A stretch of DNA of 64,000 bases from an uncultured Planctomycetia bacterium (GCA_964409365.1 CAYPCX010000002.1:96984-160983), one strand, 5' to 3'; counted from the first letter of the stretch, positions 36,001 to 62,300 are shown. Numbers and translations: made by a program. Notes: generated by a model from the sequence alone, not told the origin.

Positions 36001-39000
36001 CCACCGAGTTCGAGTCCGCGCTCCGCGAGATGGGCATCTTCGGCATAGCGCTCCTGAGCGGCCTGGACGTAGGCGCGGTAATAGGAGGGACACCGGTAAC
36101 GCGCGAGATCTCATCTCGCAGCAAAGACTCGAAAGAGAAAGAAAGCGAGCGCCTCTCGATGCTGGATGTGAAGCAGCAGGTATCCGCGCGGGACCTGGCA
36201 AAAGCAGTGCGCCTGACAGGGAAGAGCAGGCCGGCCACATCTGAAGATGTAGGTGCACGGGGAGGCGACGAACCCGGGCCCGGAGGCCTCGGTTTTCGCC
36301 TTACGGAAGGGCTGAAATACAAGCGTCCCGGAGGAGAACGCGCCGCAGAAGAAATGCCCGCGGAATACAGGAAGTACATGGGCAGTCTGACCGCCGGAGC
36401 GGCAAGCGTTGAACAGGGCTTCCTGGCGGAACTCGCCATGGACCCGGCCACGCTGGAAAAGAAAATGAGAAAGATAAGGGACGCTTTCGCGGGCGCGACG
36501 GTGTACGCCGCGATCGCCGGAGCGGCGTACAGGATAGGCGCATACGTGATGTCGGAATTTGACAAGAAAAGGATCGCTTATAGGAACAAATTAAAGCAAG
36601 AGAAAGCCCGGCGGGAACGGGCAAGCTTCCTGGACAGGATAGCGATGAAGGTCATGCAGCTCATAGAAGAAAGCAAAGAGAGGAACCAACAAGCAAAAAG
36701 GAGGGAATTAATAGCCAAAGGTATTACTGACGAAGAGGTGATCAAGAAAGAACTTGCAAAGGTCAAGGCTGACCCCGGCGCCTATACTTTTGACCGTACC
36801 AAGGGAATATATCGCATCCAGCCGACGGAAGATATCGAGGAGGCGATCAAGGAGCTGGATAAGGGATCCGCCACGGAAACGGTCCGGGAAACTCAGGCCG
36901 AAGAGCCCGTTGAACCCGGTATCTTTTCCGCGGTCGCGAAAGCTTTGCGTAAGGCCTTGGAGAGCATAACCGAGAAACTGATGGACCTGGTAGTCCCGTT
37001 ATGGGAAGCCGCTCCCATCAAGGTAGGGGAATTCCCGGCCAAACGTTTCATAGAGATGGCAGTGGGAGTGCCGCTCTCGTTCCTGGAAGGCCTTTCCAAG
37101 ATGACGGAGGTCCTGGAAAGGGTCAAGATAAGCACGGCGTTGGACAGGGAAACAGCTCTCCCGGAGAAGACTAAACTCGACGAATGGGGCGAAGAGTATG
37201 AGGTCGATATCCCCGATGCCCGCGACGTAGGAGAACGTGCCCGGGTCACGACGGAGATCGAAACGGAAGCCGGGAAAGTGACCGTTACGTTCGCCGGGAT
37301 AGAGGCGCAGGACGGCCTCGCGAAGACTACCGAGATCACCAGGAAGAACGCCGAGGTCGGGAAAGCGGTAGGAGCGGTGGAAGGTGAAGAGGGCTACATA
37401 TTCACGAGCATGATCATAGAAAAAGCCAGCAAGGACGGCGAGGTCAAGAGATACGTCCTGGATGTCCGGGGGTTCATACCGGCAGGGGACGTGGAGAGAA
37501 CGGGCGCGTTGAGCCTGGAAATGAATATGAAGGATAAACTGGTGAAAGAGATCGGGTCCTGGCTGAGTTCGGCCCAGAAGGCAGAAGGCGATGTCAGGGA
37601 AGGAGGAGCGGGCGAAGCGGGCGGCGGAGATGAAGCCAAGGCGACTGAACAGGAACTGATCAGGGACGTAGAAGCGATCTCGAATATCCTCTCCGGTATG
37701 CGCGTCAAGGGGAAGGTCGACATCATGACGGGCAAATTCGCGTTCAGGGTCGATATTGCCGAAGAAGGGGCGCGTGTTACCGGGGTGGGGATCAGAAAGG
37801 CGGCCGGGACGCCGATCGTGTTCGTACCGCTCGTAAGATCGATCGATCTTGCCAGCAGGGGAGATATGGACTCGCTGGAAAAAGCTCTCGGCGCGTTGCA
37901 GGATTTCTCTGCTACTAAAGACTTTGATGCGTTACTGGGAGGAAAAGGAACCAAAGACAAAGACGTTGTAAAAGCGGCAGAGAAGCTCCTGGACATATTT
38001 GCCGAGTTTGGCCTCGGTTCCGCCAAAGTCTGGCTGAAAGACCTTGGCGTTGTCCTGGAATCCCAGCTTTCCAACAGTAAGACGGTCGAATCATACAGGA
38101 TAACGAAGCCGATAGATATCTTTGCCGCCGATGTGCCGGAATTTCGCGGCGCGGACGTGCCGACTATCTCGATCGACGTCAGCAAGGGAGAACTCGAGAA
38201 AGTGCTTACCGATCTCCGGAAGGATCTCGAGGGTATCGTAAGGGTCGACGAAGGAAAAGTGCAGCTGAATACGGAAGCATGGAATAAGATCGCCAATGAG
38301 CTCGACCGCGAGCTTGCGGTCGAGCTTGGAGTGGGAGATATTGCCGTCAAGCTTGGAATGAGAGCTGGGACCGAAGTGGTCGTTACCGAGGTCCGGGCGG
38401 GAGATGCGGCGGCAAGGTTCAAGGCCGGGGAAAGAGTGATGATCGGCGAGGGCCTGGTGGACCTGGGATGGCTGGTGACCGTGGCTACACGGGCCGATCT
38501 CAGGGCTGAGGGAGCGGCGGGACCGGCGGCTACCCTCATGAGATTAGGGGAAGTGCTGGCCGCTCTCGGGCTTGGCCTGGGCGCGCGCGCGCCTGTCGCC
38601 GAAGTTACGCTGGTGACCCCGGGAGGATTCGAGACGAGGATGCGCGTCCGCTTCGAAGGAGTACGCGGCGACATTAAATTACGCGTCACCCATGTCATGA
38701 CCAAGGCCGGGGAAATGCGTGAGCTTGGCACGGGTATTCAGGTCGCCAGGGGCGCCGAAGGCGACAAGATGCTCACGGGATTGGCGGAAGCGGCCGCTAA
38801 GATAGATTTCCGCGTGGAAGGCAAGTTTGAAGAGACCATCAAAGCGTTACGTATTCTGGGCGAAGCGGGCGTGGAGACGGGCATGTTCGTCGGGAAGACG
38901 CTCGTGGAACTGAAAGGGGAAGGGCTCAAGCCGGTGCCGGTAGCTACGGCGCTCAGGATGGAGGTTGGCGGCGAGACGCGCGTGTTCAGGCTGCCGCAGC

Positions 39001-42000
39001 CCGTGGAAGTGACCGGGGCTAAAGTCGCAGAGATAACAAAGGCCGTTGCCGCCGCGGAAGCGAAGATCCCGGCCGGCGCGGGCGCGGCTCCCGAAATATT
39101 TGCCGCAGTGGCTCCTGTGCTCGCCAGGGAAGCGGGGATAGGTATAGTGGTCGAGGACAAAGGCCTGAGATTGGTTTCTGACGTAACTGATGGTGTAATG
39201 AGGATCTCCGTCTTGGGCCGGTTCCGTCCCTTTAAAGAAGAACGGAAGATCGGCGAGATGGCGATATCCTTGGAAAGCTTGAGAAGGCAGGAACCGGAAG
39301 ATTTTGGCAAAGGATTGTTAAAGGCAATAGCGGGCATTGAAACGATAAGTGCCAGAGTAGTGACGAAGTTGTCTGTTGCAGAAACACCGGGACTGCCGGC
39401 CGAAGGGTTAAGAGAATTAGCGGTGCAATTAAAAGATATACAGGTCGGGGAGGTCAAAGTAGAGATACCCGTGTTGGTCAGGGTTGAAGGCGAAGCTCGC
39501 GTGGGTGTCGTGCAGTTGGTAAGTCAGATCATTGAAGGTGCGCCTGAGATAAGTGTCGGGAAACTGGTGACGGCTGAGGGTGTCGAGCTAACATTTGAGG
39601 GCCTCAAAGTGGTAGAGGACGCCAAGGATCCAATAAGTGCGCATGAAAGAGCGCATATTGATGAGAAAAACCTGATGCAGGGCATCGTTGGCATATTCGA
39701 GAGCGTAGGCAGAGATGTCAAAGAAAACATAACGGGCGACCGCAAGACCCTGGGCACCCTTACCGGTGTCGCCAGGGGATTGATGGAGCTGGGTATTACC
39801 GGCGTGACAGTTACAACTGTGATCGACAGGGTCGAATATAAGATAAAGGCGGCCGCCGAGGAGGTAGAGATCAAGGTCGTGGGTATGTTGGCTAAACCGG
39901 ATGTATCCAGTTTCGTTTTTAAACCTTTCGCTCTTGGCAAGATAATGAAAGACGAACACGGGGAGCTGGTGCTTATGACTCCCGGGGGGAAGGAAGATAC
40001 GCTGCTCGATATGAGGATCGAGAGAGTGATCACGGCCGTCAGGACCATTGCCGCCAGGCCTTCCAAGGATCTTAGGGATATAGCCGGGCAGTTGATGGTC
40101 CTGGTAGCCCTGAGCGGCGAAAGCGTCACGGCGTGGACCCCCGCCGGTGTCAGGGTCAAGGCCGAAATAGAAGGGTCAAAGATAAAGCTTGCCTGGGACG
40201 CCATGAGGCTTGCTTACGGCAAGACGACGACGATAACGCCGGTCAATATACTGGAACTCAGCCTTGACAGGGTCAAGAGACAGATAAGTTACATAGTCGG
40301 GGATTCCATAATAGAAAACGTAAAGAACATGGCGGGGTTCATCGATATTCCCACCGCGGCCGGGATAGAACGGTTCATGAAACTCCTCGCTCCTGTTGCG
40401 GAGAAGATGTTAGAGACGCCCGGGGTCGCGATAGACGCGGGCAGGTTAAGGACCGGTGTGCTCACCATGGGTGAAGGCGAGGACGCCGTCCGCCTCAAGC
40501 TGGAGATAAAAGGCGAAGGTAAAGAATTCGAGGCAACTATAACCGATATAAAGAGGACCAGGGAAGAAAAAGACCTCGATATCAACATTTTCAGCAAGGT
40601 CGAAGCCTGGACGCCGGTCGGTCTCATGGTGGCCGGTAAGGAAGAGGCGATCAAGTTCGCCGATATACTCAAGGTGCGTCCCGAAGAGGTCGGCATAATG
40701 AGAGCTATCGGGATGTGCCAGGCGGGCAAACATGTCGCCTACGATGATCTCGAGAAAGCGTTAAGCGATTTCCACAGGATCATCGAGGACCCGAAGGTCT
40801 CGGCCGGCACCAGGGCCGCCTACATGGCCCTTTCATTGATACATGCGGGCGCCAGCCAGAGTGACATTATCGGTCTTTATAATTACAGCGTCAAGGAAGG
40901 CGATTTAGACAGGCTTCAGGCGGTCGTCCAGCTGTACCAGAGTAATATGACCGAGGAAGCAGACGCGATGACCAGGGGCCGCGGAAAGTTAAGCCTTACC
41001 GAAGAGAGGGTCATTGCCGATATCAAGGTGCAGAGAGCGCGACAGGTCGGCGGCAAACTGCTCTTCATGGCCAAGCATAACGTTAACGATATCAACCAGC
41101 TGGGCGTCTCTGCCGCCGATGTGAAAAGGCTTTACATCATCGGCAAGACGACCGGTAATTACGATAGGTTATACGCTCTTGCCGAGATGATGGGCGCCGT
41201 CGAGATGTGGAAGACGGATATCAACGGTGACCTCGTGGCGTCGGCGGATGATTTCAAGGCGATGGTCAAGGGCGACAAGACCGGGCTCACCATGGCGCAG
41301 AGACAGGTGGTCGGGAAAGTCCGCTTCAAGGTGATGAGCGCCATGCTGCCCGGCGCGTTACTGGAAGACGGAAGAAAGCTGCTTGACGCGTGTAACTTCA
41401 AGGAGGGCGGCTTCACGAAAGAACAGCTCATGAAAGCGGTCAAGAACGATGATCTCGACGCCATGTCCAGGATGGGCGCGGTAATAAGCGGGGTCAGGTT
41501 CGTTGACACCAGGACCGAAAAGGTCAAAGCGTTCGAGGTCAGGAAGACCGACGGCAGGTGGCTGTGCCACATCAAGATGGATTATACCGAAGGCAAGGGC
41601 CTTGAGCTGACCCTTGAGGGCCGGGCGCTCAGCCACCGGGGCATGCTGGACATTACGGTGGATTCTGCCGGGAGGGCGCTGCTTGCCAAAGATCTCACCA
41701 TGCGCGGCGGCGACGAAGGCGAGGAAATAACCCTCCTTGCCGAAAAGACCGTTATAAGTCTCTCCGGAGACTCCACGCTTAATATCCTCCAGGCGGAAGC
41801 CCGCGTCGGTAAATACAAGAAAGCTCATGTGAAAGAATTCGTTTCCATGCCGGCCCCGGCGGCCGCGGGCGTGACCGTTCCCAAACGCACCATCACGAAA
41901 CTCGAACGCGACAAGACAGGCGTGTTCGTCACGGACAGCACCCTGACTATCCGCGAGAACCAGTTCATACAGACGCCGGGCCAGGTATTCCAGCTCGGGG

Positions 42001-45000
42001 ATTCCTTCAAAGCGGCCGGGACAAGAGAAGAGTTCACGCTGGCCGGTGAGACCCTCACTATCACCGGCGACGGAAAGCAGATAATGTGCGACTACGTTGC
42101 CTGCGATTCGATAACCCGCATAGACGGCCAGATCGCCCTTGGTGAACGCCTCGACCCGGCGAGCTCTATCGGCGTTTCCGGCGGAAAATATGACGGTAAG
42201 AAGGCCGGTCAATTGTACAGCTGGAACGTGAACGGCGCCTACAGGACCGAAGGAATAATAGAAGGCACGGATGCCATATTTACCAGCTACGACAATACCT
42301 ATACCAGGAAGGATGGGACGAAGACCATAGAGACGGCATCGGGCACGATAACCGTCCGGGACAAGCGCGGGGTGGACATGCTTGCCGGCAGGGTCGTCAC
42401 GGTAGACACGGCGATGATGACGGCCACGGGGGCCCGTCATGTCAGGATAACCCAGACCGCCAAGGAGAGACTGAGCGAGACGCTCGAGAAAGGTGTCTGG
42501 ACGAAAGCGACGGTCCTGAACTGTGATTTCCACGGCTTCAGCATGAACGTTGTCATTGACGCCGAAACGGGCGAGATATTCGGCGCCGCGACAGCCGGGC
42601 GCCAGGCGCAGTCGGAGTTGAGAGGGTTGGAACATACGGCCGCCAGCGATACAAGGGCGTTCAACGGCACGTTCGCCATGCGCCAGGCCGTCAAGGTCAC
42701 CGAGAACACCGGCAGGCGCTTCTTTATCAGCGTGACAGGCTATGAAGCGTTCCATGACGGCGCCTGGACCGGAGCGAAACTCCTGAACCTCGCAGGGGTC
42801 GACGGACCTGTGGTCACGAACATGGCGGGGAAGGTCCTTGGGGATGTCTCCAAAGAACAGGCCGCCCAGTTGAGAGGGGTTACGCATACGGCTTCGGTCG
42901 AGAAGGACGTACTTGGCCTCGCGGGCAAGACCAAACTGCGCCGCAGTGCGGATGTACTGGAGGTCAAAGGCGCGTTCTTCGTGAACGTGGGCAAAGACAC
43001 CCAGCTGTTCGACGGCAAGAGCTGGAGGACCGTGGATTTCCGTGCGGCCGGAGAACACATGATAGCCATTGATCGCGATACCAAAGAAGTTATCGGGGAT
43101 ATCAATGTGATCGCCGGGGCTATCTGGAACATGCAGCTTAAGAACACCGGCACCACGATAGGCGAACTTGCCAAGGCGGGAAAGATCTCGATGTACGAAA
43201 GAGACGACAAGAAGGTCAAATTCACGCAAGAGAATATCGTGAAGGCCCTTGGCGATGTGACGGGCAAGGACAGGGATAAGCTGTTCAGCAAGGTGGATCT
43301 TATCGTGAAAGCCGATCTTGCGATCGGGAGGATGGACGAAAGGCTGTCCAATCTCGACTGGGGCCTTAAGACGATCGGCGACCTGGTCCTGCACGGGAAG
43401 TCAAAACAGGAATTCTTCGACCAGATGCTCAAGGGATTGGAGAGCGGTAACCCGAGCGAAGTGACCAGCACGTTCAATACCGTTGAAGCCCTTGTCAAGC
43501 TCAACGCCATGGACGGCGCGAAAGGCGACTGGTACGGCGCTTTTAACGCGACCAGGATGGAAGTATGGTCCTGGGCCGGGATCAGCGTGGATAAGATGAA
43601 GGATGCCGCTTTTGACGGAAGGTTCGACGAGCTGAAGCTCGCCATGAACAATGTCATCACCCTCGAAAAATTCTGTGACCTGATAAGTTCCAAGGACAAG
43701 GCCGCTGTCGCCGGCGTGAACCTGGGCAGCCTCCTGGATAAGGCCGGCTGGACGACCGGGAGGATGATAGGCCTCGTTGAATCAGGCGACCTGAAGGGCA
43801 TGGAGAACATGACCAAGTATGTCGCCGGCGCCCTGATCCAGTTCGGGGAGATGGCCGGCGTGGACGATACCGCCAAACGCAGGCTCCTGCCGCAAATAGC
43901 TGAAGCCATGGCCAAGGCGGAAACTGCCGCCGGCACCAGTACGTTCTCCGTTGATGTTAATGGCAAGGGCGCCTTTTTGAGGGTCACGGAAGAAGGGTTG
44001 TTCCTGGGCATGTTCGGCAGTGATGTGGATTTCAAGGCCGCCGGCATGATGAAGAACGCCGACAGTCAGGCCCTCATGAACGAGGTTGTTTTGTTCAGGT
44101 TCGAGGGCGAAGGCGCTTTCAGGTTGATGAACAACGCCGTCTGGCAGGATAAAAAGACCCTGAAGAAGACATACACCCTCATCGGCGGCGCCAAGGAAGG
44201 CGCGTTGATAAACATGAAGCCCGACGGGGCGCTGGATATTGTTTCCGGTAGGATGGATGTCCATGGAGACGCCGGGTTAAGGGTGGAAAGTTTGGAAAAG
44301 GTGCTTGGTCCCAGCGGTGTCGAGGAAAAGGCCACCGACCGCAGGGCCTGCATAGCGGAAGTGACCAGGGACGCGAAAGGTAATTACTATATCGGCGCTT
44401 CCACCAGGAAGGGTTTTGAGCAGGAATCGGTAAGGATCAGTATATCCAACAACAAAGCGGTCGCTTCCGAGGGCATGCTCATATTCTTCAACGTCAAGGG
44501 AAGTTTCTCCTTCTCCATCGGCGGCAGGACCTTCAACCAGAACAACATCAATGTGGCCAAAGAAGGCGTCGTCATGAGCAAGCTCGGCGCCGAGGACGGC
44601 AAGGTAAGGACCATGACCTTCAGCGAATGGAAAGCCGAAGTGGAAACGCAGATCAAGGACATAAGAAAAAGCGATACCATACCGCCGGCCGCCGAGGAAG
44701 AGCTGCAAACACTTAAGAGCAACATGGAGCATGGGCATATACTTGAAGCTGAGGGTAATGTGGAATTCATAAAGATAGCGCCCAAGGCCGCAAGCGTGCT
44801 TATGGACCTCAGTGACGCCGAGCTGGATAGCGTGGTAGAAGTGGCAAAAGCGAATGGTATAAGCGCGGATACACTGAGACTGTTCTTCAGAAAAGACGAA
44901 TTGACGACGGGAGCGCTCGCGAGGGCCGCGATGGACGACAGGACACTAGCCCGTCTTATCAATAACGTGTCGATTATCACAGCCTACAAGGCGCGGATGA

Positions 45001-48000
45001 ACATGTACGCGGCGAAAGAGCAGACGGGCAAGCTGGCCGAGGAGATGGCCGCGGCTTTCGGCGTAAGCAGCCTGGACAGGGACGATTTCGTCGCCCTCGC
45101 GACAGGCAAGTTAATGGATAGCCCCGCTCTTGCGCGGATGATGAGCGAGCAAACCCAGGAGCTCGTTAACATGTTCGAATATCATAAGGACGAGGCGACC
45201 GGTGAGATGGTCTACGGTTCGGAGACGATCGGAGGAAGGATCGGAGGAAGGCTCGGATGGTGGGCGGGGACCATAGATCATTACAAGCTCCAGATAGCGG
45301 GTGTAGCGGTCGGCCTGGTCTTCCTGCCCGCAGGCGCGATGCTTCTTGCCGCGGGTGTCGCGGCCGGGTTCAGCGCTATAGCCCATATAGGTATAAAGAT
45401 ATGGTCTAACGTGAGATACGGAAGGAGCTGGCATGCGGGTACCTTCATATGGGAGCGGGGAGGCGGATGGACCGACTTTGAGTGGGGATTCTTCAAGGCG
45501 GTCGGGGAAGGGGCCTTTAACGGCGCCGCGTTCTATGGAGGTATAGGAGTTGTAAGCAAGGTCGGGTTCGTGGGAACGTTGGTCAATAATGCTTATTCCA
45601 TGGGCAAGCTTGCTCCTGTTGTTTTTGTGGGGGCCGGGGGCATGATCAATGTCACGTGGAACATAGCGAGTGCGGAGTACGCGAACCTGGTAGGAGGAGG
45701 AAACGAGTTTTACACCAGGAGCAGGTTTGTCGGCGACTTTATAAGGGGCGGCGTGCTCGGTTTTCTTGTTTACCTTGGTTGTGGTAACGGGGCCAGCGCG
45801 GCGGCTACGGTAGGAAGCAAGATAGGAACGATCGCACTCGGCGCCGGTATAGGCGCTACAGGCTTTGTGACGGCCGACCTGGCGCAGGACTGGATGGAAG
45901 GGAAGATCACTTCCAAGGAAGAGTTGGGGAAACGCCTGCGGTCGAGCAGGACCCTGGTAAGCGCGCTTACAGGCGCGCTCTGGGGCGCTATGGCAGTGTA
46001 CGCGGCGACACCCGGGAAGGGCTTTGGCCAGGATAAGCTGAGGGGAGCTATCGCAAAAACGGGCAAGCTGGCCAGTTCCGGTAGGGCCATGGCTTGGGAG
46101 ATGGCCAAGGGCGCCGCGCATTGGCCTCTGGTAAGCATGTCGTTCGGCATTATCGGCGGCGTGGTCAATACCGTGTTTGATGCGATCAGGACAGGGTGGA
46201 ACAAGTCGGGCCTGCTCGGGGCTATCGGCCACGGCCTCCACGCGCTGGTCGTGTTTACGGACTGGAAGACGGAGAGCGGCCACCGCATGTTCAGCGGAAA
46301 AGGCCTTTTTGAGATCGCGCAGCACGGTATCGAAGGTTTCAGGACCGGTCTTTACATGGGCCCGTTCGTGGGTCTCTTCGGCGGTATCAGTCAGATGCCG
46401 GGGGCGATGGAAGCTAAAGCAGCTGAAGGAGTGGGATTGTGGGCTTCGGTAAGCGCTGGAGCGGGCAAAGCAGTGACCAGACTGGGTAAAACACTGGGTA
46501 AAATATGGGCAGGGGTAACGAAGGTAGCAGGAACGGTAGTCAACAAAGAAGCCGTACTTAACGCGTGGACCGCAGTAACGGCTGCAACAGGCGCTGCAAA
46601 AAAAGCTGTGTTAGGTGGTATGTGGAACGCGGCAAACGCGATAGCGAATAATTTCGCGACAGTGATGACGAACGCGGCATCCAGGTTCGGGATGAAGATC
46701 GCCGGCACTGCGGAGACGATCATAAAACTGAAGTTCATAAACAAGGCGCTTGAGGGTCTGGCGGCAAGGGACAAGTTCGGTGCCAGCAGGTTCGGAGGCG
46801 CGGGACTGTCGCAGGGCGCCACTTCTGTCCTGAGCTGGGCCATGCTTTTCGCCATACCGTCGGTCGTGGCTTATGTCCACCAGCGCAGGCAGCTGAGAAA
46901 GATAGCACAGATCCAGGAGAAATCGAGAGGGGCGGTTACCCGGAGCGTACACAAATTGCTTGATGGGAAGGCGAAGGAAATAGAGGCTGCCGGTAAAGCG
47001 GCATACGATAAATCAATGGAAGATACCGATGGTAAAGGTTTTTCGAGAGGATACCGGGAAGCGCTTGCAGAGAACCAGCGCCAGATCGCCAAAGGTGTGC
47101 GGATAGATTGGGCCATTCGCGAAGCAAAGCAGGAAATGGAAAAACGTACCAGTCCGAAGGAGAAAGAGGCTCTCAGGAAGCAGGGGCTGGCCAAGTGGGA
47201 AGGCATAACGACCACGGAAAGCGTGATCACCGAGGCCATAGAGAGCTATGTTAAGAAGATGGGCATAACTCCCCAGCAGTTCTTGGCCGCGGTAGCAGGG
47301 GTTGATTCTGCGATGCAAAGTATAAAAGCCGGCGAAAAAGCAAAGATGAAACCGGAAAGAATGGAAGAACTCAAGAAAGAAGCGGAAGCGCGCGGAAAAG
47401 AGATGCTTGATTTTCTGGAAGCTACCTCGCAATCCGGATTCAGTCTTTTTAACGCCATTGTTGATCCAGGGGTTAAACCGGGCGAAACAAAGGCGGAAAA
47501 GGCGGCATATGAAAAGGCTAAACAACAAAAGATTCAGGAACTACGGGGCAAACTCGGTAATGTCGGAGAAGCTGCCAGTGAGGGGCAAAGGGCGCAGTTC
47601 AGAAAGGAGATAGAGGCTGGAATTAACGCAAAGGCAAAGGGAAATGCTAAAATGCAGGCCCAGCTGAACAAGGAACTCGGGCCCAAAGGATCAGGTGTGA
47701 CCGGCTTGCAGGTTCTTACCACGGCTATCGAGACGTTCGTCAGGATACATGCATATACGGGCGGGAAATGGAACCCCCTGTGGGGTAAAGAAGCGCAGAA
47801 GGGCGGGCAGTTCAGTGCCGTGGTTGCCGGGTTATACTCTGCGATCGACTGCAACCTGCAGGGTACAAATGCGAGAGGCACTATCATAACCCTGCCTTGC
47901 GGCCAGGGTAAGACTTTCGTTAATGTGGCTCTACAGATGGCTTTCGGGACATGGCTGGTGGATGTGGCTCCATCCACTATTACCGACGCGGAAGGCAAAG

Positions 48001-51000
48001 AGCGGAAGATAGGCGCCGATTACAAGAGCGTGACGGACCTCCGGTTGATGATAGTCGTCGATACCGACGCGAACGTACAAAAAGATTTTAATATGACAAG
48101 TATTGAAAAGGGTTCGCTCGCGGAAGTACTGGTGCAATTCTGCGGCGGAAAGAAGAGCTTTATTAAGGCGGTCACGGACAAGAACCCCATGACCGATGGC
48201 AAGGGCATCTTTGTCTTGTCGGCAAAGACACTGCTTTCCACGTTCTACAATTCGCCTGACAAGCTTGAAGGGTTCAATCTTCTTACCGTGGACGAAGTCG
48301 AAGCCGTACTGCAATCCACGAACCTTACCTACAGCGCGGCTATCAACATGTTCGCGAAACAGAGCGGCGGCGCGCAGAATTTCCTCCTCCAGATGGACGG
48401 CATGACAAAAGAGGCGGCCAGGATGGTCAAGAACGCGTGGGCCGGGGGCGCGGGTTGGAAAGATTTCAATGTGGATAAGAGCACCAGCGAAAGATACCTG
48501 ACGGAAGGGGTTCATAACCAGATTGTGAATAAGCTATTGGGTAGGGCTGACATGCAGGGTGTTATAGCGACTGTCGGGGGCAAGGCTATGGCGGAGATAC
48601 TGCTTACGACTTACCTTAACCGTGCCACTCACATGTTGACCTGTAACCAGCATACCAAGGGTGAGTTCACCATCAATTATAACAAGGACGGCACGGTGAA
48701 GTCTTACACCATGCATGACAGGTCCACCGGGGCTGACATGGAAAATACCCAGTATGGTGACGCGTGGAAGGCCCTGGCCATCCATCACCGCGGCCAGTTA
48801 GAAGGTGAGGCCAAGTTGTCGACCAGCCAGGTGCAGAAGCAGACCGAGCGGGGATTGAACGCGTTCCTGTCTGTGACCAGTCGCAGTGTGAGTATCGGTC
48901 AGGCCCTTGCCCATGTGAACAAGCATTCGGCCAGCGGCGGAGATATCCTTGTAGGCCTTACGGGTACCGTAGCCGGTTGTAAGTCGACTCTGGCCGTCAT
49001 GGGTGTAAACCTGGTCCAGCTCGGCACCAGTACCTGGAACAGGGACGCGGGTTACCGGTTCTATGGTGATCATAGCAGCATGTTATCGGCTGCCGGCAGA
49101 GATATGTTGAGCATGGCAAAACAGAACGCGAACGGAAGAAAACTGGTGGTAGGGGCCTTCGGTACTGTCGATAAGATGTTGGAGGTCGCCAACAAGATGT
49201 CAGGAAAGAAACTGACGACGGCAGACGTGCTGAGGCGCGGATTTCTTGAAGTAAAGGTAGGCGGTCAGAGGATATGCCTTTACACGGACCCGAATGCGTT
49301 CATCGCGCAGAAGAATAAGGTCACCAGTAACAGAAAACGCATGAGGTTCGGTAACGCCATCCATCTTATAGCCCAGCTTGGTACGGGTTCGAACGCCTTT
49401 GAAACGCAATGGGTGGGCTTGGACAAAGCAGAGACAGGGTTTGATCCCCATAAGATAAAGACAGGTAAGAAAGGGGTATATTTTACAAGCGTTGAGATGT
49501 ATACGACCGAAATAGGTACCTCCAGCGCCATGACGCAGCAGGAAGAAAGGATAAACGCTAACGGCAGGGGCGCGGGGAATGTCCACCACTATATAAATGT
49601 AGCTGAAGTAATGGCAGAAAATGCCAACAGGACCCTTTTGAGCAAGGTTGTTGAGCAAACCGGTGGATTCGACAAAGAGATGAACGGTTACAGCAGGTCC
49701 GCCCAGTTGTTCCAGGAGTTCATGGAGAACAATAACAACAACATAGATACCGCCCAGGCGAGAGGTGCAGTCCAGGTATTGCAGCAAACCGAGGATTTTC
49801 GTTTAGGTGAAGTGATGCATACCCTTTATGGTTTGCCGGTGTTAGAGACGATCCCGGCAGGTGCTCGGGATACTGCGATCAACAGGTTCAGCCAGGCTGT
49901 GGAAGAAGCCGGTGGTATTGAAGGTGTAACCGGGGAGGATATGGATAAGATCTCCGAGTGGCTGGGGACGGAGTTCGGCGCTGAAGTCGGGGAAGGTTTC
50001 GCGGAAAGCCTTGGCGGCGCGTCTGAAAGCCTTGGTCTGAGCCCGGTCGAGACGTTCGGCCTGGTCATGGACGCTCATAAGAACCTGGCCGTGTCGGATA
50101 TCATGGGTATGGCGAAGGATGTCAGGGCACAGGCGGACAGTAAGACCATGATACCTCGCGTTACGGCCGGAAGGGAAAGCAGTTCCTTTATCGACAGCGG
50201 GTTGGCCGGTATCGAGTTTGACGGAAGGAATATAGAGACCGAGGTCGAGGTCGCGGGCAAGCGGGAGACCTATAAAGGCAGGGACGCGGTATCCAGGATC
50301 ATCGCCAATGCCTGCGCGTCCAGGGGCATGGACGTCTTTGAGGCGAATGGGACGTCATTTATCGCGGCTGAGCGTACCGGAGCTCTCCTGGGGCACGTGC
50401 AGGTAGGTAACGGTGTCCGGGACGGTATAGTTACCGTTGACGCCGAAGCGGTTTCCGGCCTGGCCGGTGAAGTTATCAGGGCCCTCCTGGAGGACAGGGG
50501 TATCGAACTCGACGCGGGCCAGAAGATGAAGGTTTTGGATATATTGCTGCAGGTAGGCATATCCCACGAGATGAGGCATGAGGCCAGGGATGCCAGCGCC
50601 CATGTCGGCGGCAGCCAGAGAGAGGAACTGATGCTTACGGTAGAGGACGCCGCCATGCTGGCGAACCTCATGCATGATGCCGGTATCGTTGAGGCAAATC
50701 CCGAAGGAGTTGAAACCCTGCGCGCTGTTGTCCCGGCGGCACTGAGAGGTCTGGTCATGCGCGCCGGCGCTGATGAACGAAAGAGCAAGTTCATCCAGGT
50801 CCTGGACAACGTTATGGCCGATAACGCAGTAATGCAGGCGCTCATGACCGGCCAGCTCAGCATAGGCATTACCAACGGCCAGCTTACTCTTGCCGCCGCC
50901 AAAGGCGCGAGCGTGGATATCATAAAAGCCGCGGCCGGGACTATTGTCAACGCGGCGAGCGCCGTGTGCGGCGTGAACAGCCTGGCGGCCGGCATGGACA

Positions 51001-54000
51001 TCAACATCGCCGCGGGGGCCGGAGTGGTCAATGACTTCCAGGCTTTTGATAACATGGTTTCCAGTATAATGGGCGAAGTGCGGGAAGGCGGGAATAATGT
51101 CAACATCGCTTCCGTAGCCGCTAACATAAAGGGAGCTGATATCGACGTGAAGATGGATACCGCGAGCAAAAAGGTCGATAACGTCGCGGTTTCCCGCCTG
51201 GGCGTGAGAATGCAACAGGCGCAGATGGGCAGGACGGTCGATCTGCAGAACGTCCTGGGCAGCGTGTACAATGCCGTCGATAACGTTATCATGACGGGCA
51301 TGGTGACTAACGCCCAGGACATGGTGAACGCGGTATCCGTAGCGAGATCGGTCCTGGGCGCGGAGCTTGGGATGGAAGCTATGAACTGTGACCTCACTGT
51401 CGAGATGCTGGACGGGACCGAGCTTACGGCAAGCCTGGATACAAGGGGCAATGTGATGAGCGCGATGGCCGCCCGGACCCGCGAAGGGGTTCGCGTGAAG
51501 CAGGACCAGCGTGACGGGAAGATAGATATCGATGGAGTGAATGATCTCGTTGTCGCGGCTAACAAGATAGCGGCGCGTTTCGGGCGTGTAGCCGCCGGCC
51601 GCGATCTCGCCAGGGCGGGCTTCGCGTCAATGGCAAAACTGCGTAACATCATCGGCACCGGGAACGCGGCGAATTGCGCCATGACCCTCACCGCTCTGAC
51701 CGGGACGGAAGTGACGCTTGTCACCGACAGGCGCGGCATGTTGACGAGCATGACCGCCATGGCAAGAGGCGTGAGCATGCAGAAGATGAAGATGGACGGC
51801 ATGATGGACCTCGAAGCGCTTAAGAGAGGGGCCAGTATGTTGAACGGCCTCGTTAACGCGGCCGAGACGGCAGGCAGGCGCGGCATGGTGACCCATAGTA
51901 ACCAGCTTGGCCGCGCGGCTATAAGGGCGACGGTCAGCATGATGGAACATATGGGCGCGGAGAACGCGGGTGATTGTACCGTGAAGGTCACGGCTATTAA
52001 CGGCACCGGGGCCATGATAGCCACCAATGAGCGTGCCGGTGTCAGGAGCGTAGGCGCGATCAGAAGCGGCGTGACCATGGAACAGCTGAGCCGTGACGGC
52101 AGGGCGGACAGTAGTGTGATAGACAGCCTCGTAAGCGCCGCGGAAACTCTCGACGCGAGCGGCAAGACGATGACCGGTGTCCAGGGGCTTGTTAACGCGG
52201 CGGAAGCGGCAAGGTCCGGCCTGCGGACGGATATCGGCGCCCAGGCGATGGACTGCATGGTCACGGTCGAGACCCTGAGCGGGACAAAGCTCACCGCGGT
52301 CACGGACATGACGGGTAACGTCACGGATGTGTCGGCGGCCCGCGAAGGAGTGATAGTCAGGCAGGCCCAGATAGAAGGCAGGATAGATGTCCAGAGAGCG
52401 GGAGAATTAGTTAATGCCGCGGAGACGATAAACGCCAGGGGCGCGGTAACGGACAGCCGGCAGCTTGCCGATACCATGAACAAGGCCATGCTGGATCTCA
52501 GGACGAGTGTGGACGGCGTGGTTAACATGGCCAACAGCGCCATTACCCTTACGGCGGCTAACGGCACGGAACTCGTCGGTACGACCGACAGTTTCGGGAA
52601 TGTCGCGAACGTGACCGCGACAAGCGGCATATTACACATGGAACAGATGCAGTTGGGCGGAAGAGTGAATATTGACAGGGTGAACAACATGGTCAATGCC
52701 ATAGAAGCGGTCAGCCCGGATATCAGCGTGACAGAGAGCAGAGAGCTCCCGGCGGCGATGGATAAGGTCATATCATACATGATCACGAGGGGTTTCAGGG
52801 ATATTAAGGATATGGCCAATAGCGCCATCACAATTACCGCTCCCAGCGGCACCGAATTGACGGTCATGACCGAGGAAAGAGGAAGCGAGATCGTGAGGAC
52901 CGGTGTCAGGTCCGGAGCGGTCCGGATAGAGCAGGCGTGGCCTGACGGCATGTTTGACGTTGAAGTAGCCGGTCGTACCGTGGATACCGCGGAAGCTATC
53001 GGCGCCGACGCTGCCCTGACCCGCAGCGATGAGCTCGGAACTGCGCTGGCCGCGGCGTTCTCGCGCTTAGGAACAGGTCTCGGAGTAGGGGAGAACATGG
53101 CAAACACCGTGCTGACCGTCACGGCCGTGAACGGGACCAAAGCCGCGGCGCTGACGGACGATCTGGGGAGGTTCGATAGTGTAGCCGTTTCGAGCGGAAT
53201 GATAAAGATCGAACAGGCCCAGGTCGACAGGAAGGTACGCGTGCCGGGGATAAACGGCCTTGTGAGGGCGATCGAGGCCGATGCCGGGCTTACCAGGATG
53301 GCTGACAGCCGCCAGCTCGGCAGTACGGCCGTTTCGGTCATTTCTAACATGAGGACGGTCCTCGATGGCAAGGAGAACACGGCCAACAGTATCGTGACCG
53401 TCATGGCCCCGAGCGGAACGGGGGTCTCGGTAAGCATGAATAATGACGGTGATATTACCCGCACGTTCGCGACGCGCGGCGGTATAAGAATAGAGCAGGC
53501 GCGGCTTGCGGAACATCTGGACAGCCGGGATGTGGACAGCCTGGTGAATATTGCGGATGCTGCCGGTCTTGCCGGTCCGGTCGCCGACAGTAGCGCGCTT
53601 GCCGAAGTGGCCGCGGTGAAGATAGCGGGCTTAAGAAGCGACATTGGCGCCGGTGAAATGGCCAACCGCACTATCGCTTTTATTGCCGAGAACGGCACGG
53701 AAGCTCAGGTAACCACCGATGATCAGGGCATGGTGGACCGGGTGGCTGCCGGGCACGAAGGGGTTCGCATGGAACAGGCCCGGCCCGGCGTGAGTGTTGA
53801 TAATGAGGCGCTGAACGGTCTTGTCGGCAAAGTGGAAGCGTTGGCCGGGATGAGAGCGGCTGACGCGATCAATGGCGCGCTTGACTTCGCCCGCGAGACA
53901 GGAATTAATACGGAATTAAGCTTTGACCTTGTTATGGATATACGGGTCGAAGCCGCCACAGTTGACAGGGGTCTGGGCCGGTTAGAGGTTATACACGCAA

Positions 54001-55961: not shown

Positions 55962-55974
55962 TGACAGGTTTGGC

Positions 55975-56045
55975 ATCTGCCAGCTACCAGCCATACTGAC
56001 AGTGCCGCAATAAGGTACCTGCCAGCTACCAGCGCTGAAGGTACC
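55975..56045 (+). repeat. Nested short direct repeats in the 3'UTR of the giant gene
   Basis: ctgccagctaccagc occurs twice (55976-55990 and 56019-56033) and aaggtacc occurs twice (56011-56018 and 56038-56045), immediately upstream of the terminator hairpin. ggtacc is self-complementary, so a small secondary stem is possible. Confidence 0.5.
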
Positions 56046-56330: not shown

Positions 56331-59300
56331 ATGTTTCCGTTCGGTGATGAAAAAACATATCAACGGGGCGATGGCGGTTTGGATAGATCCCCGGGGTCAT
56401 GGTTTTACAGGTATGTAAGTCATGTAAAGGGGAAGTCTGTCCCGGATCATCCCTCAAAGCCCAAAGGAGTGGCTTCGGTCTCAGCGGACAAGAATATACG
56501 GCCGTGGATCAGGCTCATCTCTGTGGTCCTTATTTTTACGTTCCTTTTCCAGCAGGTCTCTTTCGGCCAGGTGCAGCCGCCGGCGACACCACTAGTCAAA
56601 GGACGTGTCGATCTCAATCAGGTCTCGATACCCCGCGATATCGCCATTACCAAGGACATACATAGAACCTCCAGCAAGGAGCTCATCATAAACATCAAGG
56701 ATATCCACGACAACCTCGGCGCGCAGGAATCGATCGTGGCGGTCCTCGAGAACCTTGCCATGAATTATGACATCCGCTTTGTCGGCGTGGAAGGCTCGGA
56801 AGGGCTGATCGACATGAGCGTGATCAGGGATTTTCCCGACGCCGAGGCGAAAAAGATGACGGCCGAATACCTCATGAGCCAGGGCAGGATCTCGGCCGGC
56901 GAGTTCTTTGCCGCGCTCTCGGACCGCCCGGTCATGCTGTACGGGATAGACGACAGCCGGCTTTACCTGCAGAATTACCACGCGTTCATATCCGTCAATA
57001 AAAAGAAGAAGCTTAACATGAAGCTCGTGGGATCCCTGAGGAACGCGCTCGGCGCGCTCGGGGACCATATATTCTCCGACGAGCTGAAGCTGCTTAACAG
57101 CAATTCCATCCTGAACAACAATAACAAACAAAAAAGGTTCACCCAGAGGTGGCACAGCGTCGAGGAGATAGGAAGAAAATACGGCATCGGTTATTCTGAA
57201 TATCAGAACATCAACGCGCTGATGGATTCCATCGAACTGGAAAAAGAGATCAACTACGCGGCTACCAATGTCCAGAGGGACGAACTGCTCGACACGCTGG
57301 GCGGCAAGCTGAAAAGGGACCGCCTGGAAGAACTTATCCTGAAGAGCCTTTCTTTCAAGCTCGGCAAACTGTCGAAGAGCCAGTTCTATTCTTACATACT
57401 TCTCCTGGCCAAGGCCGCGGGTATCGACCCGTCGCAGTACAGCGAGCTGGAGAAGTTCTGTGATTACGTTAACCTTTACGAATCCATAGATATAGCCGGC
57501 CTCATGGACGAAATGGACGATTACGAGTGCAGGATAAGGGAGAAGCTTTTCAGGAACGACGATGAGAGGGAGCTCACGACGCTCATGAAGAACACCGAGA
57601 TACTGAACAACATCTTCTCGATCAAGCTTACCAGCGGCCAGCTTCGTTACTTCAGGGACCACATGGGCGACTTCCGATGGAAAAGGTTCCTTGATTTTAT
57701 CAGGACCCGCTATAAGAAATACCGGATACCTCTCCCTGCGGACCTGGCGGACGTAAGCGGCCTTTTTGAACAGCTTCCCCAGGCCTCGGATTTTTACGCG
57801 GCGGCGACGGACAGGAACAGGGCCATGGTGGAGAACACCATAGAATATATGAGAGAGAACGACGTGAGCGTAGCCGCCGTGGTGACCGGAGGTTTCCATA
57901 CAAGAGGTATCACCGAGATCCTCAAGTCGGATCAGCTTTCCTATATAGTTCTCCTGCCGCGCTTCAATCCCCAGAAAGGTAAACGGCCGTACGTGACCGT
58001 ACTCACCAATAAGGATAAGGAATACGAGCCTTATTCGGGATCGGGCGAATACCTGGCTACCACCTCGGAATATGCCCTTAAAAAGGCCATACTGGAAGGG
58101 ACCGGTATGAGCAAGGAGGACCTGAGGGCGGTATTCGAACCGATGGCAATGTCCCTCGGGCTCTCTTACCTTTTGAGGATGCAAAGGGGCATGGTCAATC
58201 CGGAAGTGCTGCAGGCGAGGATGCAGGACCTTTTGGACCAGTATTTCGATGACCTTATAGACAGCACGTATGAACTGGTGAAAGAAGGGAAAACAACTGA
58301 CGCCGAATTCAAAGAATTCCAAGAGGTCATAAACGGTCTGCGCGCGGGTAAACTGCAAAGAAGGGTGCTGGATGACGGCACTGTAAGGATAGGCATAGAA
58401 AGCGAAGAAGGCCTGTTCTTTGTCTATGATACCGAGCTTGTCGAGGATGAATCCGGCCAGAGAAAAATGGCATTAAAAAGATATGAGACGACCTCAAGGA
58501 AAAACTTTGATACGGCAATGAAGAGAGAAGCGCCCTTCAGGGCCGAAGCGGAAAGGATGGCGGAAGTCACCGAGATACTGGAAGAATCGCTTTTGAAGGC
58601 TAAAGAACTTCGGGAAGAGTCGGCGTTCCGGGCAAGGGAACTGCGCCTGAGGTTCTTCCTTGATCAATTAAGCAGGTACGAGGGCAGATTGGACCAGAAG
58701 TCTTCCATCAAAGTAGCGATTTTGAGGATAGCCAGGCGGAAAGGAATGGAAGAACTTTTGGAGACCGGCGAAGACGATGTGATTGCAGCAGCATTCATCA
58801 GGGCCCGGGAGGCAAAGAAAGCGGTCGAAGAAGAAGCGGCAGGGATGGTAGAAGCACTGGGGCCAGGGGTAGAGGTTGAAGCCAGAGTAGGAACGATGCA
58901 CCGCATGGGTATGGTTGAACAGGAGAATTTTTCCGCTAAAGAGGCGGATTTCATAAAGGAAGTTGGAGAACGAAGAAAAACCGGAGAACAAAAGATCGCG
59001 AAAAGGAGCATAGGATCAGAGGAAATAGGAGCAAAGGCAGAGGAGATAAAAGCGGAAATTATTTATGTCGATCTGGGCGACGAGGCCGATGGTTACCATT
59101 TTGAACATTCGGACGGGACAAAAATTATTGTTGTGGACGAAAGGTTTAAAGGGACAACTATTGAAGACGAGATAATATATCATGAAATGGCCGAGATCTA
59201 CTGGGAGAAACGGGGAATCGGTGTGCTCGATGCCCATCGTCTTGCCGCTGTCCTCCAACTCATGGAGTATGGAAGCGACGGATTGCAACTTACCCCATAC

Positions 59301-62300
59301 CATTATTCTCAGCTTACCACGGATCTAAACGCGGACCAGCTGCAGGAGATCGTTGACGAGTATGAACGCGGGAGAGAAGCGCAGCACAGCTTGTTCAGCA
59401 AACATTTCCCCGGGGGATACGTTGAAAAGATCCGGGGATATGAAGATAAGGTCTATGCGCAGGCTCAGATAAGCCTTAGCATGCGGCGCGCAGAGGAAGA
59501 AAAGATCACGCTTGCCAAAGCCGAAGAAGCGGCTAAGAAAGAAGCCGAAGAAACCCCGGCTGAGGAAGAGGTCGTTGAAGAAAAGGTAGAAGAGGAAGCG
59601 CCGGCCGAAGCCGAAGTCGAAGAAAAAGCGCCGGCCGAAGAAGAAGTGTCTGAGGAAGAAAAACAGCAGGTAGAAAAGGCCACGGAAGAGATAAAAAAGA
59701 AAGCGCCGTCACCTCTTGCAGTTGCCGCGCCCGGTCCGGTGAGAAACTTTTTGGAGGGCATCGAGAACGAGATAAACAAAGTGGAAAGTGCGCGCAAGGA
59801 GTATTTCACCCTGATGAGCAAGCTTATAGCTCACCCCGACAAGAAGATGGCCATGGCCGCGTACCAGTTCATAGATCTTGCGATAACTAAATTAAAGACA
59901 TTATATGAGTTGCTCGATAAGGCTATTGCCAAGCTAAGTGAAATACAGAACGATCTGGACGAGAAAGGCCAGCTGACTGATGAGGCCAATGATAGATTGA
60001 CCGTATACCGTTCGGGCATACTGAAGTTACAGATCCAGATCAATGACTTGGAGGAAATGTACGGTTCCGCCCTGAAGGATGAAGACCTGGAGAGGCTGGA
60101 AGAGAAGGAGGAAGAAGCCCCTGGGAAAGAAGCGGAAGAGGCGCCTGAAGAAGTAAGAGGAGAGCCCGCTGCCAGGGCCCCGCCCCCGGAAGATGTAAGG
60201 GATCATGCGACCAACCAGATCGCCAGGAATATCGCGAAAAGGTTCGGTATCCTGGCCAAAGTGAGAAGCTGGAGAAGGGCGAGGCAGGCCCGGAATATAG
60301 CAAGGAAATTCAACGAAACGCCCGAGGAAGACATACGCGATGACAGGGAGATGTTCGGCGTGGAGGTCATGGGTGCTACAGACGCAATATTGGAAAATGC
60401 TAAAAAATGGAGCGATCCCAACAATGATTTCTGGAAAGATGAAGAGAACCAGGAGCTTACCGAAGCGACCGTGGATAATATCAGGGAACAGGAAGAAGCG
60501 CTTGAGGGAGAGATCTCAAAGATAAGGGCCAATGTCCAGCCGAGTATCCAGGCGGATGCCAGCGACAGCCTGGATACGGTCATGGAGAAACTCCAGCAAA
60601 AAATCGACGCGGAAGAAGAAGATTATGAAGAGTATAAAGGTATCCTGGAGGAGCTTAAGGAGAAGAAGGCCGAGCTTGATAAATGGCGGAAGATCGTAAG
60701 GGTGGTCGAAGGCAAGGAGGTGGTAGATCATTCAAAATTGGGCATCCTTGTTACGATCATGAAAAATGACAAGGCACTTAATGATATGGTCGACAGGGGA
60801 GAGATGATAGATCCGAAGACCGGCGAGGTCAAGGACGGTTTCCTGAGGCTCGCGGGTGTTAACGTCAACCTGGCCATGCAGCTCGGGCTCGGGTTTACCC
60901 TTCGTGAGCATCAGTACAGCGGAGCCCGCGCCACTATCAGCGGCTGCATGATAAACCTGCACACGGGGCAGGGTAAAACGTACATAGATGTCCTCGACAG
61001 GTACATGGCCTCCCTTAAGAATAAGGGTATGCCCGTCGATCTCATGGCGACGGACGACAGCGAAGCGAGAAGGCTTGAATACTCGACCGGGCTCGTTTTT
61101 CGTCTGCTTGGCCGGAGTTGCGGCATCTTAAGCGCGGACCAGGGTATGGCCGCCGACGGCACGTATGTCAGGATGCGTCGCGAAAAAGGAAAGATCGACG
61201 AGCAGGAGAAACAAAAAATATTACTTGATAGAAAACGGAACGCCTCCGAAGCCCAGATCCGGTTCATAACCCCCAAGATAGCTTTTGACATCATGCATGA
61301 CATGGTCCTGGCCGACAATAAACACGGGGAACGCTATCTTCTAAGGGGATGCTATGACGTTCTGATAGACGAATCCGACAGCCTTCTGCTTGACCAGGCG
61401 CTCACCGAACTTATCATTTCCGTCTCGAGGGGCGATCTTGACCCGCATGAGGCCGTACCGTATTACGTGGCCCGCCAGGTAGGCGTTTACCTCCAGCAGC
61501 ATTCCGATGAGCTCAGGCTCGAGTCCACCACCCGGGAAAGGCCCGAAGAGGGTGATATAGAGGAAAAGGGAAAGTACACGGGGACGTGGGTGGAATATGA
61601 TAGTGATACCGGCCGGGTGTCCCTTACCGAGGAAGGAAAACGTGAAGTTAACAAAAAGATCGCTGACGCGGAGGACATAGCCCGGAAAATGGGGCTGGAA
61701 TATCCTACGAATAGAACGATCCTCTGGACAAGGCTTGTGGAGCAAAGCCTGAGCACGAGCGTGGAAAAGAATGCTTTTTACAGAGGGCGTGACATCGATA
61801 CGCAAAAGACGGGAGTCCAGCTGATAGATCTGGCGACGGGAGGCACATCATTCGGCCAGAAGAGGAGCCAGGACGGGCACCAGGCCGCGGAGGTCATAAT
61901 GGGCATCCCCAAGCTGAGCAGGCCCGGTGAGACTATGTCCAAGCTGTCGATGCTGGAGCTTGTGGACTATGTTTACGGCGGGAGTTTCTCGGGCCTCAGC
62001 GGAACGAACATAGAAGGACAGACGGAATTCTACGACAGGTTCGGTAAATCGGTAGCCAATATCCATGACTGGGACAGGGGATCCTTGCGCAAGGTGTGGG
62101 ACAGGAATGTGGCGGCCGGGGAGAGATTCGAGTACATGGTAAGGGAACTGATCAGGACGCGCGGCGATAAATATCTCAAAGACCGTCCGGTCGTTCTCAT
62201 GGTAAGCGATTTCTTGCAGGCCGAGCTTTTGGAAGACAAGATGAAGTGGATCATATTCATGGCAAAGGAAGAGAGATCGACGGCAGAAGGGAAAACGGAG

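Follow-up and report, generated by a model that had tools for sequence, protein, structure and literature searches.

The stretch of 64,000 nucleotides (nt) analysed here, referred to below as the window, comes from an uncultured Planctomycetia bacterium (GCA_964409365.1, CAYPCX010000002.1:96984-160983) and contains two large genes, ORF1 and, starting at about nt 56331, ORF2. ORF1 is a single uninterrupted open reading frame (ORF) of 18,636 amino acids (aa) that nearly fills the window (Table 1). A preliminary description of this DNA, made from the sequence alone, had placed in ORF1 a Gly/Ala-rich membrane block joined in the same polypeptide to a SecA-like ATPase; the nucleotides it gave correspond to aa 15080-16524, and all of the strings it quoted are found there. 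Our analysis makes it highly probable that a SecA-like ATPase of superfamily 2 (SF2) is indeed fused to a conserved membrane domain in this protein.

Conservation and predicted fold of the motor

An exhaustive phmmer search among 1.84 billion cluster representatives recovered nine homologues of the motor with E-values from 7e-90 to 4e-13, and all nine homologous motors sit inside proteins of 2,162-6,853 aa. The motor is a genuine domain, conserved among these proteins. Together with ORF1 these sequences form the ten-sequence family alignment to which the conservation values in Table 1 refer. Among the strings quoted earlier, DEVE is located at aa 16081-16084, GLTGT at aa 16302-16306 and RINANGRGAGN at aa 16500-16510.

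Table 1. Features of ORF1 and ORF2, in nt of the window; residue numbers are those of ORF1
Feature	Position	Strand	Remarks
ORF1	51..55961	+	complete giant gene, 18,636 aa; Dockerin/EF-hand-type Ca-binding domains N-terminal
Gly/Ala-rich block, putative polytopic membrane domain	45288..46892	+	aa 15080-15614; hydrophobicity scans, homologue collinearity
Strongest hydrophobic stretch	45288..45404	+	aa 15080-15118; Kyte-Doolittle (KD) value 2.27
Last transmembrane (TM) candidate GATSVLSWAMLFAIPSVVAYV	46815..46877	+	aa 15589-15609
Basic cluster HQRRQLRKIAQIQEKSRG	46878..46931	+	aa 15610-15627; directly past last TM candidate
Linker	46893..47870	+	326 aa, Ala/Lys/Glu/Gly-rich; from membrane block to motor
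Divergent SecA-like SF2 ATPase (predicted)	47871..49790	+	aa ~15941-16580 (~640 aa): nucleotide-binding domain (NBD) 1, insert at the position of the preprotein cross-linking domain (PPXD), NBD2, one conserved helix
Motif I/Walker A LPCGQGKTF	47892..47918	+	K15954, T15955; CGxGK[TS] in 9/9 covering sequences
Motif II/Walker B LLTVDEVEAVLQS	48279..48317	+	D16081, E16082; pattern DE[VAF][ED], DE invariant 10/10
Insertion between motifs II and III	48336..48920	+	~200 aa, at the place of the SecA PPXD; contains HDRSTGADMENTQYGDAWKALAIHHRGQ (aa 16222-16249)
Motif III LVGLTGTVAGC	48948..48980	+	family pattern [TSGA]GT; G16305, T16306 invariant
Motif V equivalent AIHLIAQLGTGSNAF	49356..49400	+	TG(S/A)N, against GRGTD in SecA; Arg absent in 10/10
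Motif VI equivalent TQQEERINANGRGAGN	49533..49580	+	Q..R.N..G..R; Q16496, R16500, G16505, R16506 invariant, N16502 nearly so
Conserved helix FMENNNNNIDTAQARG after NBD2	49719..49766	+	family motif N..ID.RQ
ORF2	56331..64000	+	at least 2,556 aa, cut by window end; Pfam-detectable SecA_DEAD at ~nt 60597-62627

At overall identities to ORF1 of only 24-34%, the residues of Walker A and Walker B, of motif III and the two arginines of motif VI are kept across the homologues. Invariance of the motifs at this level of identity is a signature of selection on catalysis, and since the residues for ATP binding and hydrolysis are intact, we infer that the motor is most likely an active ATPase. One part of the expected catalytic set did not stand, namely the arginine of motif V, which is absent family-wide. 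Motif IV is poorly conserved in the family, and family conservation ends past the N..ID.RQ helix. A degenerate pseudo-ATPase, retained as a structural or docking module, would be in line with the loss of the motif-V arginine in all members, with the state of motif IV and with the extreme divergence of a family that has nine relatives in 1.84 billion clusters. However, the Walker A lysine, the Asp-Glu pair of Walker B, the Gly-Thr of motif III and both motif-VI arginines would hardly have remained invariant in such a module, and we consider it very unlikely.

A prediction of the motor with AlphaFold (AF2) from the single sequence was unusable, with a predicted local distance difference test (pLDDT) score of 34.6. 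The model obtained from the ten-sequence alignment reached a pLDDT of 76.2 and a predicted template modelling score (pTM) of 0.73. When this model was compared with the PDB using Foldseek, ranks 1-21 were all taken by SecA or SecA2 (E 2e-11 to 3e-7), the best template modelling score (0.51) being obtained with SecA of the substrate-engaged SecA-SecY complex (5eul_A); DinG came next with 9e-7, followed by DEAD-box proteins near 1e-3. SecA and SecA2 ranked first in both fold searches that were run, with a wide margin in Foldseek only. Judged from the predicted model, the SF2 two-RecA fold of the motor is secure, and both fold-search programs place the SecA subtype first. The motor that had been proposed to follow the last hydrophobic segment is thus upheld by the model as a two-RecA SF2 ATPase with SecA and SecA2 as its best structural matches.

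The spacing of the motifs points in the same direction. K15954 and D16081 are 127 aa apart and D16081 and T16306 225 aa, the corresponding distances in the SecA domain of ORF2 being 131 and 212 aa. Motifs II and III lie far apart, with a gap at the site of the PPXD in SecA, and this favours the SecA type, whereas ordinary SF2 helicases of the DEAD/DEAH kind have a short spacing between these two motifs. By eye only, the strand-strand-helix core of the insert (EFTINY..VKSYTMH..DAWKALAIHH) resembles the segment DYVV..VVIVDE..GLHQAIEAKE of SecA; in Pfam searches SecA_PP_bind matched the insert neither in ORF1 nor in the homologues.

These results also bear on the suggestion that the motor might be a generic, membrane-tethered SF2 helicase or translocase acting on nucleic acids, e.g. 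in the handling of DNA or RNA during predation, and no polypeptide translocase at all. The features of SF2 helicases of the DEAD/DEAH, DinG/XPD and Snf2 groups, i.e. a short II-III spacing and nucleic-acid motifs or domains, were not found in the motor. The 21 SecA and SecA2 structures that Foldseek lists before the first helicase, with 4-5 orders of magnitude in E-value, the gap of ~225 aa that fits the PPXD position, unlike the situation in DEAD/DEAH proteins, and the conserved fusion to a polytopic membrane domain all speak against such an enzyme. In addition, Pfam and NCBIfam detected no nuclease or nucleic-acid-binding domain in the ORF1 regions scanned. We regard the helicase explanation as improbable.

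Sequence searches gave a different picture from the fold searches. In ORF1 aa 14801-16800, Pfam returned no match with E <= 1 for SecA_DEAD (PF07517), P-loop_SecA (PF21090), SecA_PP_bind, SecA_SW or helicase models, and the SecA and helicase models of Pfam matched none of the ten family members. There was no SecA match to the ORF1 motor in NCBIfam and no SecA or helicase match in a phmmer search of the PDB, where a hidden Markov model of the family found only Walker-A stretches of XPB/Rad25 (E 0.19-1). Alignment of the family with a 20-sequence SecA profile by hhalign yielded probabilities of 0.7-1.4% in local, low-mact, global and alternative-alignment modes, with weak collinear sub-matches at Walker A and Walker B only; a pairing of the family helix GG..A..LLTNY.NRAT with SecA motif V was non-collinear and was judged spurious. 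Likewise, hmmsearch --max of the family against SecA stayed at or below 5 bits in both directions, word-indexed protein homology searches with the motor alone and with the family alignment gave no match, and BLASTP of the ORF1 motor against the SecA domain of ORF2 aligned the neighbourhood of Walker A only (E 0.018). As a positive control, ORF2 scored 65 bits on SecA_DEAD (cut-off 24.6), matched the SecA model of NCBIfam with an E-value of 7e-20 and retrieved canonical SecA. The profile comparison that had been proposed for aa ~15,900-16,560 was therefore negative for ORF1 and for every homologue, with hhalign null too. Nor can the motor be called complete, as it had been at first: a SecA scaffold and wing (SecA_SW, PF07516) were not detected after it by Pfam or by hhalign against the C-terminal part of SecA, and the motif-V arginine is replaced.

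The family member P0050 (6,853 aa), in which the family motor is N-terminal, contains by eye a second P-loop/DExD-like region at aa ~2700-3300 (GCGSTSMGKT ... IRIDEQDKF).

The hydrophobic block and its linkage to the motor

In a Kyte-Doolittle scan with 19-residue windows, aa 15082-15609 form the sole clustered hydrophobic region of ORF1; hydrophobic segments are sparse upstream of aa 15080. Gly and Ala account for 16.6% and 15.7% of the block, compared with 8.2% and 10.4% over the whole protein. On the Goldman-Engelman-Steitz (GES) scale, used in our own TopPred-like re-implementation, 10 'certain' segments fall in the 535-aa block as opposed to 9 in all the rest of the protein (~18,100 aa), i.e. 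10 of the 19 'certain' segments of ORF1 lie in 2.9% of its length, and this cluster is far beyond chance within ORF1. The 9-11 Gly/Ala-rich segments of the preliminary description are thus reproduced on the GES scale. The number is nevertheless scale-dependent, few segments remaining at KD >= 1.6: the KD peaks are at aa 15082-15117 (2.27) and aa 15589-15609 (1.69), seven or eight Gly-rich segments between them have values of 1.0-1.5, and two to three segments, among them the first and the last, pass the cut-off. The first stretch, aa 15080-15118, could form one long TM helix or two. Behind the last hydrophobic segment follows the string HQRRQLRK, with five K/R in 15 residues, and according to the positive-inside rule a basic cluster at this place suggests that the part downstream of it is cytoplasmic.

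In the homologues a hydrophobic block occupies the matching relative position; as many as eight of its segments reach KD >= 1.6, and KD values rise to 2.5-2.75. Alignment across eight proteins revealed conserved motifs in the C-terminal half of the block (GAL.G..VA.Y, KGA..W..VS.F, G..MGP..GLFG and SWA.LF.(K)P), and SWA.LF, which belongs to the last TM candidate, is kept in seven of the eight family proteins holding the region (ORF1 and six homologues). The distance from the last TM segment to Walker A is 246-633 aa in the homologues. In P0042 (aa ~1429), P0043 (aa ~3706) and P0049 (aa ~2568) a further strongly hydrophobic, Gly/Ala/Val-rich segment is seen ~680-830 aa past Walker A; as ORF1 has no counterpart of it, the members of the family appear to differ in their topology downstream of the motor.

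It could be argued that the block is no membrane domain of the producing cell, but a glycine-zipper element forming pores in, or inserting into, the membrane of a prey, or even a soluble Gly-rich domain, in which case the picture of an anchor would be wrong. The few segments of ORF1 that pass the strict KD cut-off, the low values of most of the Gly-rich ones and the fact that neither Pfam nor NCBIfam matched the block to a membrane-protein family would agree with this. The strongly hydrophobic counterparts in the homologues and the 10 GES-'certain' segments stand against it, as do the conserved last helix with the basic cluster behind it and the requirement of the ATPase for cytoplasmic ATP, so that we hold this explanation to be decidedly improbable.

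The block and the motor occur together. By BLASTP, ORF1 aa 14522-16579 is collinear with aa 1635-3584 of P0043 (E 5e-110), and the match to P0042 spans block, linker and motor as well. As far as can be read from these alignments, the module of membrane block, linker and motor is passed on as a collinear whole. The C-terminal 250 aa of ORF1 are also common to P0043, with 40.5% identity. A relative of at least 5,912 aa is encoded by Candidatus Tantalella remota (locus L001, contig JAVCCB010000012.1), a member of the phylum Omnitrophota, and P0043 is apparently this giant ORF, since its C-terminal sequence is identical. With 28% identity it represents the only genome-assigned relative. The Tantalella giant is followed by a gene that bears no relation to ORF2. 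Scans of genome contigs with a single protein and of metagenome contigs with a three-sequence alignment gave no match.

Remaining parts of ORF1 and the neighbouring gene

Inspection of the N-terminus of ORF1 (MYLGGEFYRYRDEDG...) by eye did not reveal a signal peptide. Pfam identified Dockerin_1 in four stretches (E 8.6e-43), as well as EF-hand_7 and DUF4214, and all Pfam matches of the N-terminal part, including a weak one to C39, lie within the first ~4,500 aa; in aa 5001-14800 Pfam recognises nothing. Asp-rich repeats continue, by eye, to about aa 6,650. The Ca-binding or adhesin-like character ascribed earlier to some 15,000 residues is therefore present in the form of dockerin and EF-hand domains, but its extent was overstated. 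The match to Peptidase_C39 (aa 4431-4522) is sub-threshold, with an E-value of 4.6e-4 and 20.5 bits at a cut-off of 22, and is adjoined by a hydrophobic segment at aa 4355-4380 (both at ~13113-13616 of the window). C39-like domains have been reported for giants of the Omnitrophota, where a role in propeptide cleavage was suggested.

Two further observations concern the region upstream of the block. The motif G/A-x-Y-T-(T/S), in forms such as GIYTT, GEYTT, GGYTT and AWYTT, occurs 36 times in ORF1, with ~5 copies expected from composition, and 35 of these copies are found in the first half of the protein (aa 200-9250, window ~650-27800); it might mark sites of processing or glycosylation or the boundaries of repeats. 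Secondly, the isolated hydrophobic segment MGIFGIALLSGLDVGAVIGGT (aa 11994-12014, window 36030-36092, KD 1.86), which is followed by a very K/R/E-rich stretch, lies ~3,000 aa upstream of the main block and could be an extra single TM helix. If real, it would change the topology model.

Downstream of the motor follow about 2,050 aa. They include, between motor and conserved C-terminal domain, about ten tandem repeats of ~95-100 aa (aa ~17026-17933, window ~51126-53849) which are visible at the protein level only (phmmer E down to 1e-20) and share the core MANS(A/I)(I/L)T(L/I)TA..GTE; Tandem Repeats Finder reported no DNA tandem repeats of note in nt 44000-56000. Similar repeats are seen by eye in P0049 and P0042. 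About 260 aa past the motor there is a string of the HExxH type, ISHEMRHEA (aa 16837-16845, window 50559-50585), which is nearly identical in P0044 (FTHEMRHEAG) and missing from the other homologues; no metalloprotease model of Pfam matched at this place. A match to CagE_TrbE_VirB near the C-terminus of ORF1 (E 0.011) was below the cut-off and was dismissed as noise. ORF1 ends with ...EADVAY (window 55917-55958), and among P0043, P0045, P0048 and P0049 the endings are EADTAF, EAEIAY, AAELAY and EADIAF. The C-termini of the full-length relatives all finish with an aromatic residue, preceded in ORF1 and P0043 by the shared domain of ~250 aa, and the conserved extreme C-terminus might be a sorting or secretion signal.

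The neighbouring ORF2 had not been mentioned in the preliminary description, although it encodes a second SecA-like domain that is far more canonical than that of ORF1, with the motifs TGQGKT, DESD, GLSGT and TNILGRATDI. Between motif V and the string GRPGREGMPG, which resembles motif VI, there is by eye an inserted stretch of ~380 aa. The sole strongly hydrophobic segment of ORF2 is a putative N-terminal anchor at aa ~55-80 after a K/R-rich start; on a naive reading this anchor would leave the ATPase on the non-cytoplasmic side of the membrane. ORF2 is a possible partner acting in trans.

A possible role in export and comparison with known systems

In the model that we favour, ORF1 would be a giant protein of the 'Dockerin type' from an Omnitrophota-like bacterium, the conserved Gly/Ala-rich polytopic domain (aa 15080-15614) would anchor it in the cytoplasmic membrane, and the 326-aa linker would tether a divergent SecA-type SF2 ATPase lacking scaffold and wing at the cytoplasmic face. 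Driven by ATP, the motor would thread polypeptide across the membrane in the service of the giant itself, the substrate being either the Ca-binding N-terminal part of the same molecule or freshly synthesised copies in trans. Passage might occur through SecYEG or through the membrane domain of ORF1 itself, and the second SecA-like protein, ORF2, would possibly help. We give an even chance to ORF1 carrying a membrane-tethered, active SecA-type polypeptide translocation motor that serves the giant protein. The narrower proposition that this motor exports the giant itself is more doubtful and can be put forward only tentatively. Self-export and the retraction of a surface fibre, both brought up in the preliminary description, were pure conjecture.

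There are several points that weigh against this model. A link of the motor to SecA by any sequence or profile method is lacking, and the structural call depends on one AF2 model for which the input alignment was shallow. Coupling of SecA to SecY is provided by the wing and by the scaffold domain with its two-helix finger, and neither of these elements is detectable in the motor; moreover, the motif-V arginine is missing throughout the family. Translation reaches the motor only at the end, past ~15,900 residues, so that it could give no co-translational help to its own N-terminus. Finally, the side of the membrane on which the N-terminal 15,000 aa would lie depends on the number and parity of the TM segments, and the possible TM helix at aa 11994-12014 complicates the matter.

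The late synthesis of the motor would also suit the proposal that it acts on other clients, either on secreted neighbours, in the role of an accessory Sec ATPase, or as an unfoldase or remodeller of the C-terminal part of ~2,000 aa, which comprises the ~ten ~95-aa repeats and the conserved C-terminal domain. A function for accessory proteins has been allowed for in related giants (West-Roberts et al. 2023), and ORF2 provides another SecA-like ATPase. Against this, there is no positive evidence for any such client, and the motor is strictly linked in cis to the membrane block in all homologues, which speaks for a function bound up with the giant itself. On balance other clients are unlikely.

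The missing scaffold and wing, as elements of SecY coupling, would fit an independence from SecYEG. Carried to its end, this leads to a variant of the translocation model in which the Gly-rich polytopic domain is itself the protein-conducting channel and the tethered ATPase its private motor, in other words a SecYEG-independent 'auto-translocon'. We consider this variant improbable; if true, it would be a new type of secretion device, able to thread a megadalton adhesin without a signal peptide.

Giant genes of the Omnitrophota have been described that encode many TM regions and, in most cases, divergent SecA DEAD domains without scaffold and wing (West-Roberts et al. 2023, 10.1101/2023.11.21.568195). 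In the 'Dockerin-type' giants among them, C-proximal TM anchors are followed by SecA-related domains, and it has been suggested that the SecA domain may be anchored by the TM regions next to it and may in turn secrete the giant itself or accessory proteins (10.1101/2023.11.21.568195). A preprint of 2026 reports architecture clusters with SecA_DEAD and C39 and a near-universal TM content in long Omnitrophota proteins (10.64898/2026.06.07.730766). The reference to this class in the preliminary description was accurate, and the nearest genome-assigned relative of ORF1 does belong to the Omnitrophota; the idea is not new, however, as both the architecture and the hypothesis of self-export had already been published (West-Roberts et al. 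2023). ORF1 resembles the Dockerin-type giants in its N-terminal dockerin and EF-hand domains, in an N-terminal part largely free of TM segments and in the weak C39-like region. It differs from them in three respects. With 18,636 aa it is below the examples of at least 30,000 aa, its SecA-like domain is invisible to the SecA_DEAD model of Pfam, the relation to SecA being seen in structure only, and it is followed immediately by a second gene in which a SecA_DEAD domain can be detected. As a consequence of this invisibility, annotation by domains would score ORF1 as having 'no SecA domain'.

With canonical SecA (B. subtilis 1tf5 and 5eul, E. coli 3bxz) the motor shares the two RecA-like SF2 domains, the motifs xxxGxGKT and DE(V/A)(E/D), the GT of motif III, the long II-III insertion and the motif-VI arginines. 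Unlike canonical SecA, it has neither significant sequence or profile similarity nor the motif-V arginine, and no scaffold (perhaps with the exception of its first helix), wing or C-terminal zinc-binding domain can be detected in it. Furthermore, SecA is soluble and peripherally bound, whereas the motor is covalently joined through the linker to a putative polytopic domain within a giant protein. A dedicated SecA paralogue for a large adhesin is known from the SecA2/SecY2 systems that serve the serine-rich-repeat adhesins of Gram-positive bacteria, and SecA2 structures (6sxh, 4uaq) are among the top structural matches of the motor. In these systems, however, motor, channel and substrate are separate and the substrate has a signal peptide, while in ORF1 motor and membrane domain would be part of the presumed substrate. 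The layout of polytopic anchor, long low-complexity linker and ATP-driven translocase is shared with FtsK/SpoIIIE, but by analogy only: FtsK motors are hexameric DNA pumps of the RecA/ASCE type and not SF2 enzymes, and the fold search gives the FtsK family no support.

The existing picture of Omnitrophota-type giants is not changed by ORF1. What it adds is a motor subfamily unseen by domain annotation, a defined conserved module and a canonical-looking SecA-like gene downstream. Some motors of giant proteins are evidently missed by Pfam, NCBIfam and HH-suite and are revealed by structure prediction alone, and as divergent motors escape annotation in this way, the published statement that 'most' of the giants carry SecA domains may be an underestimate. 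The two different SecA-like motors in adjacent giant genes hint at cooperation, and the collinear unit of block, linker and motor defines a compact, expressible construct of ~1,500 aa. For the export or insertion by bacteria of proteins of tens of thousands of residues without a signal peptide, the combination of a membrane domain and a SecA-like motor in one module is the only mechanistic lead.

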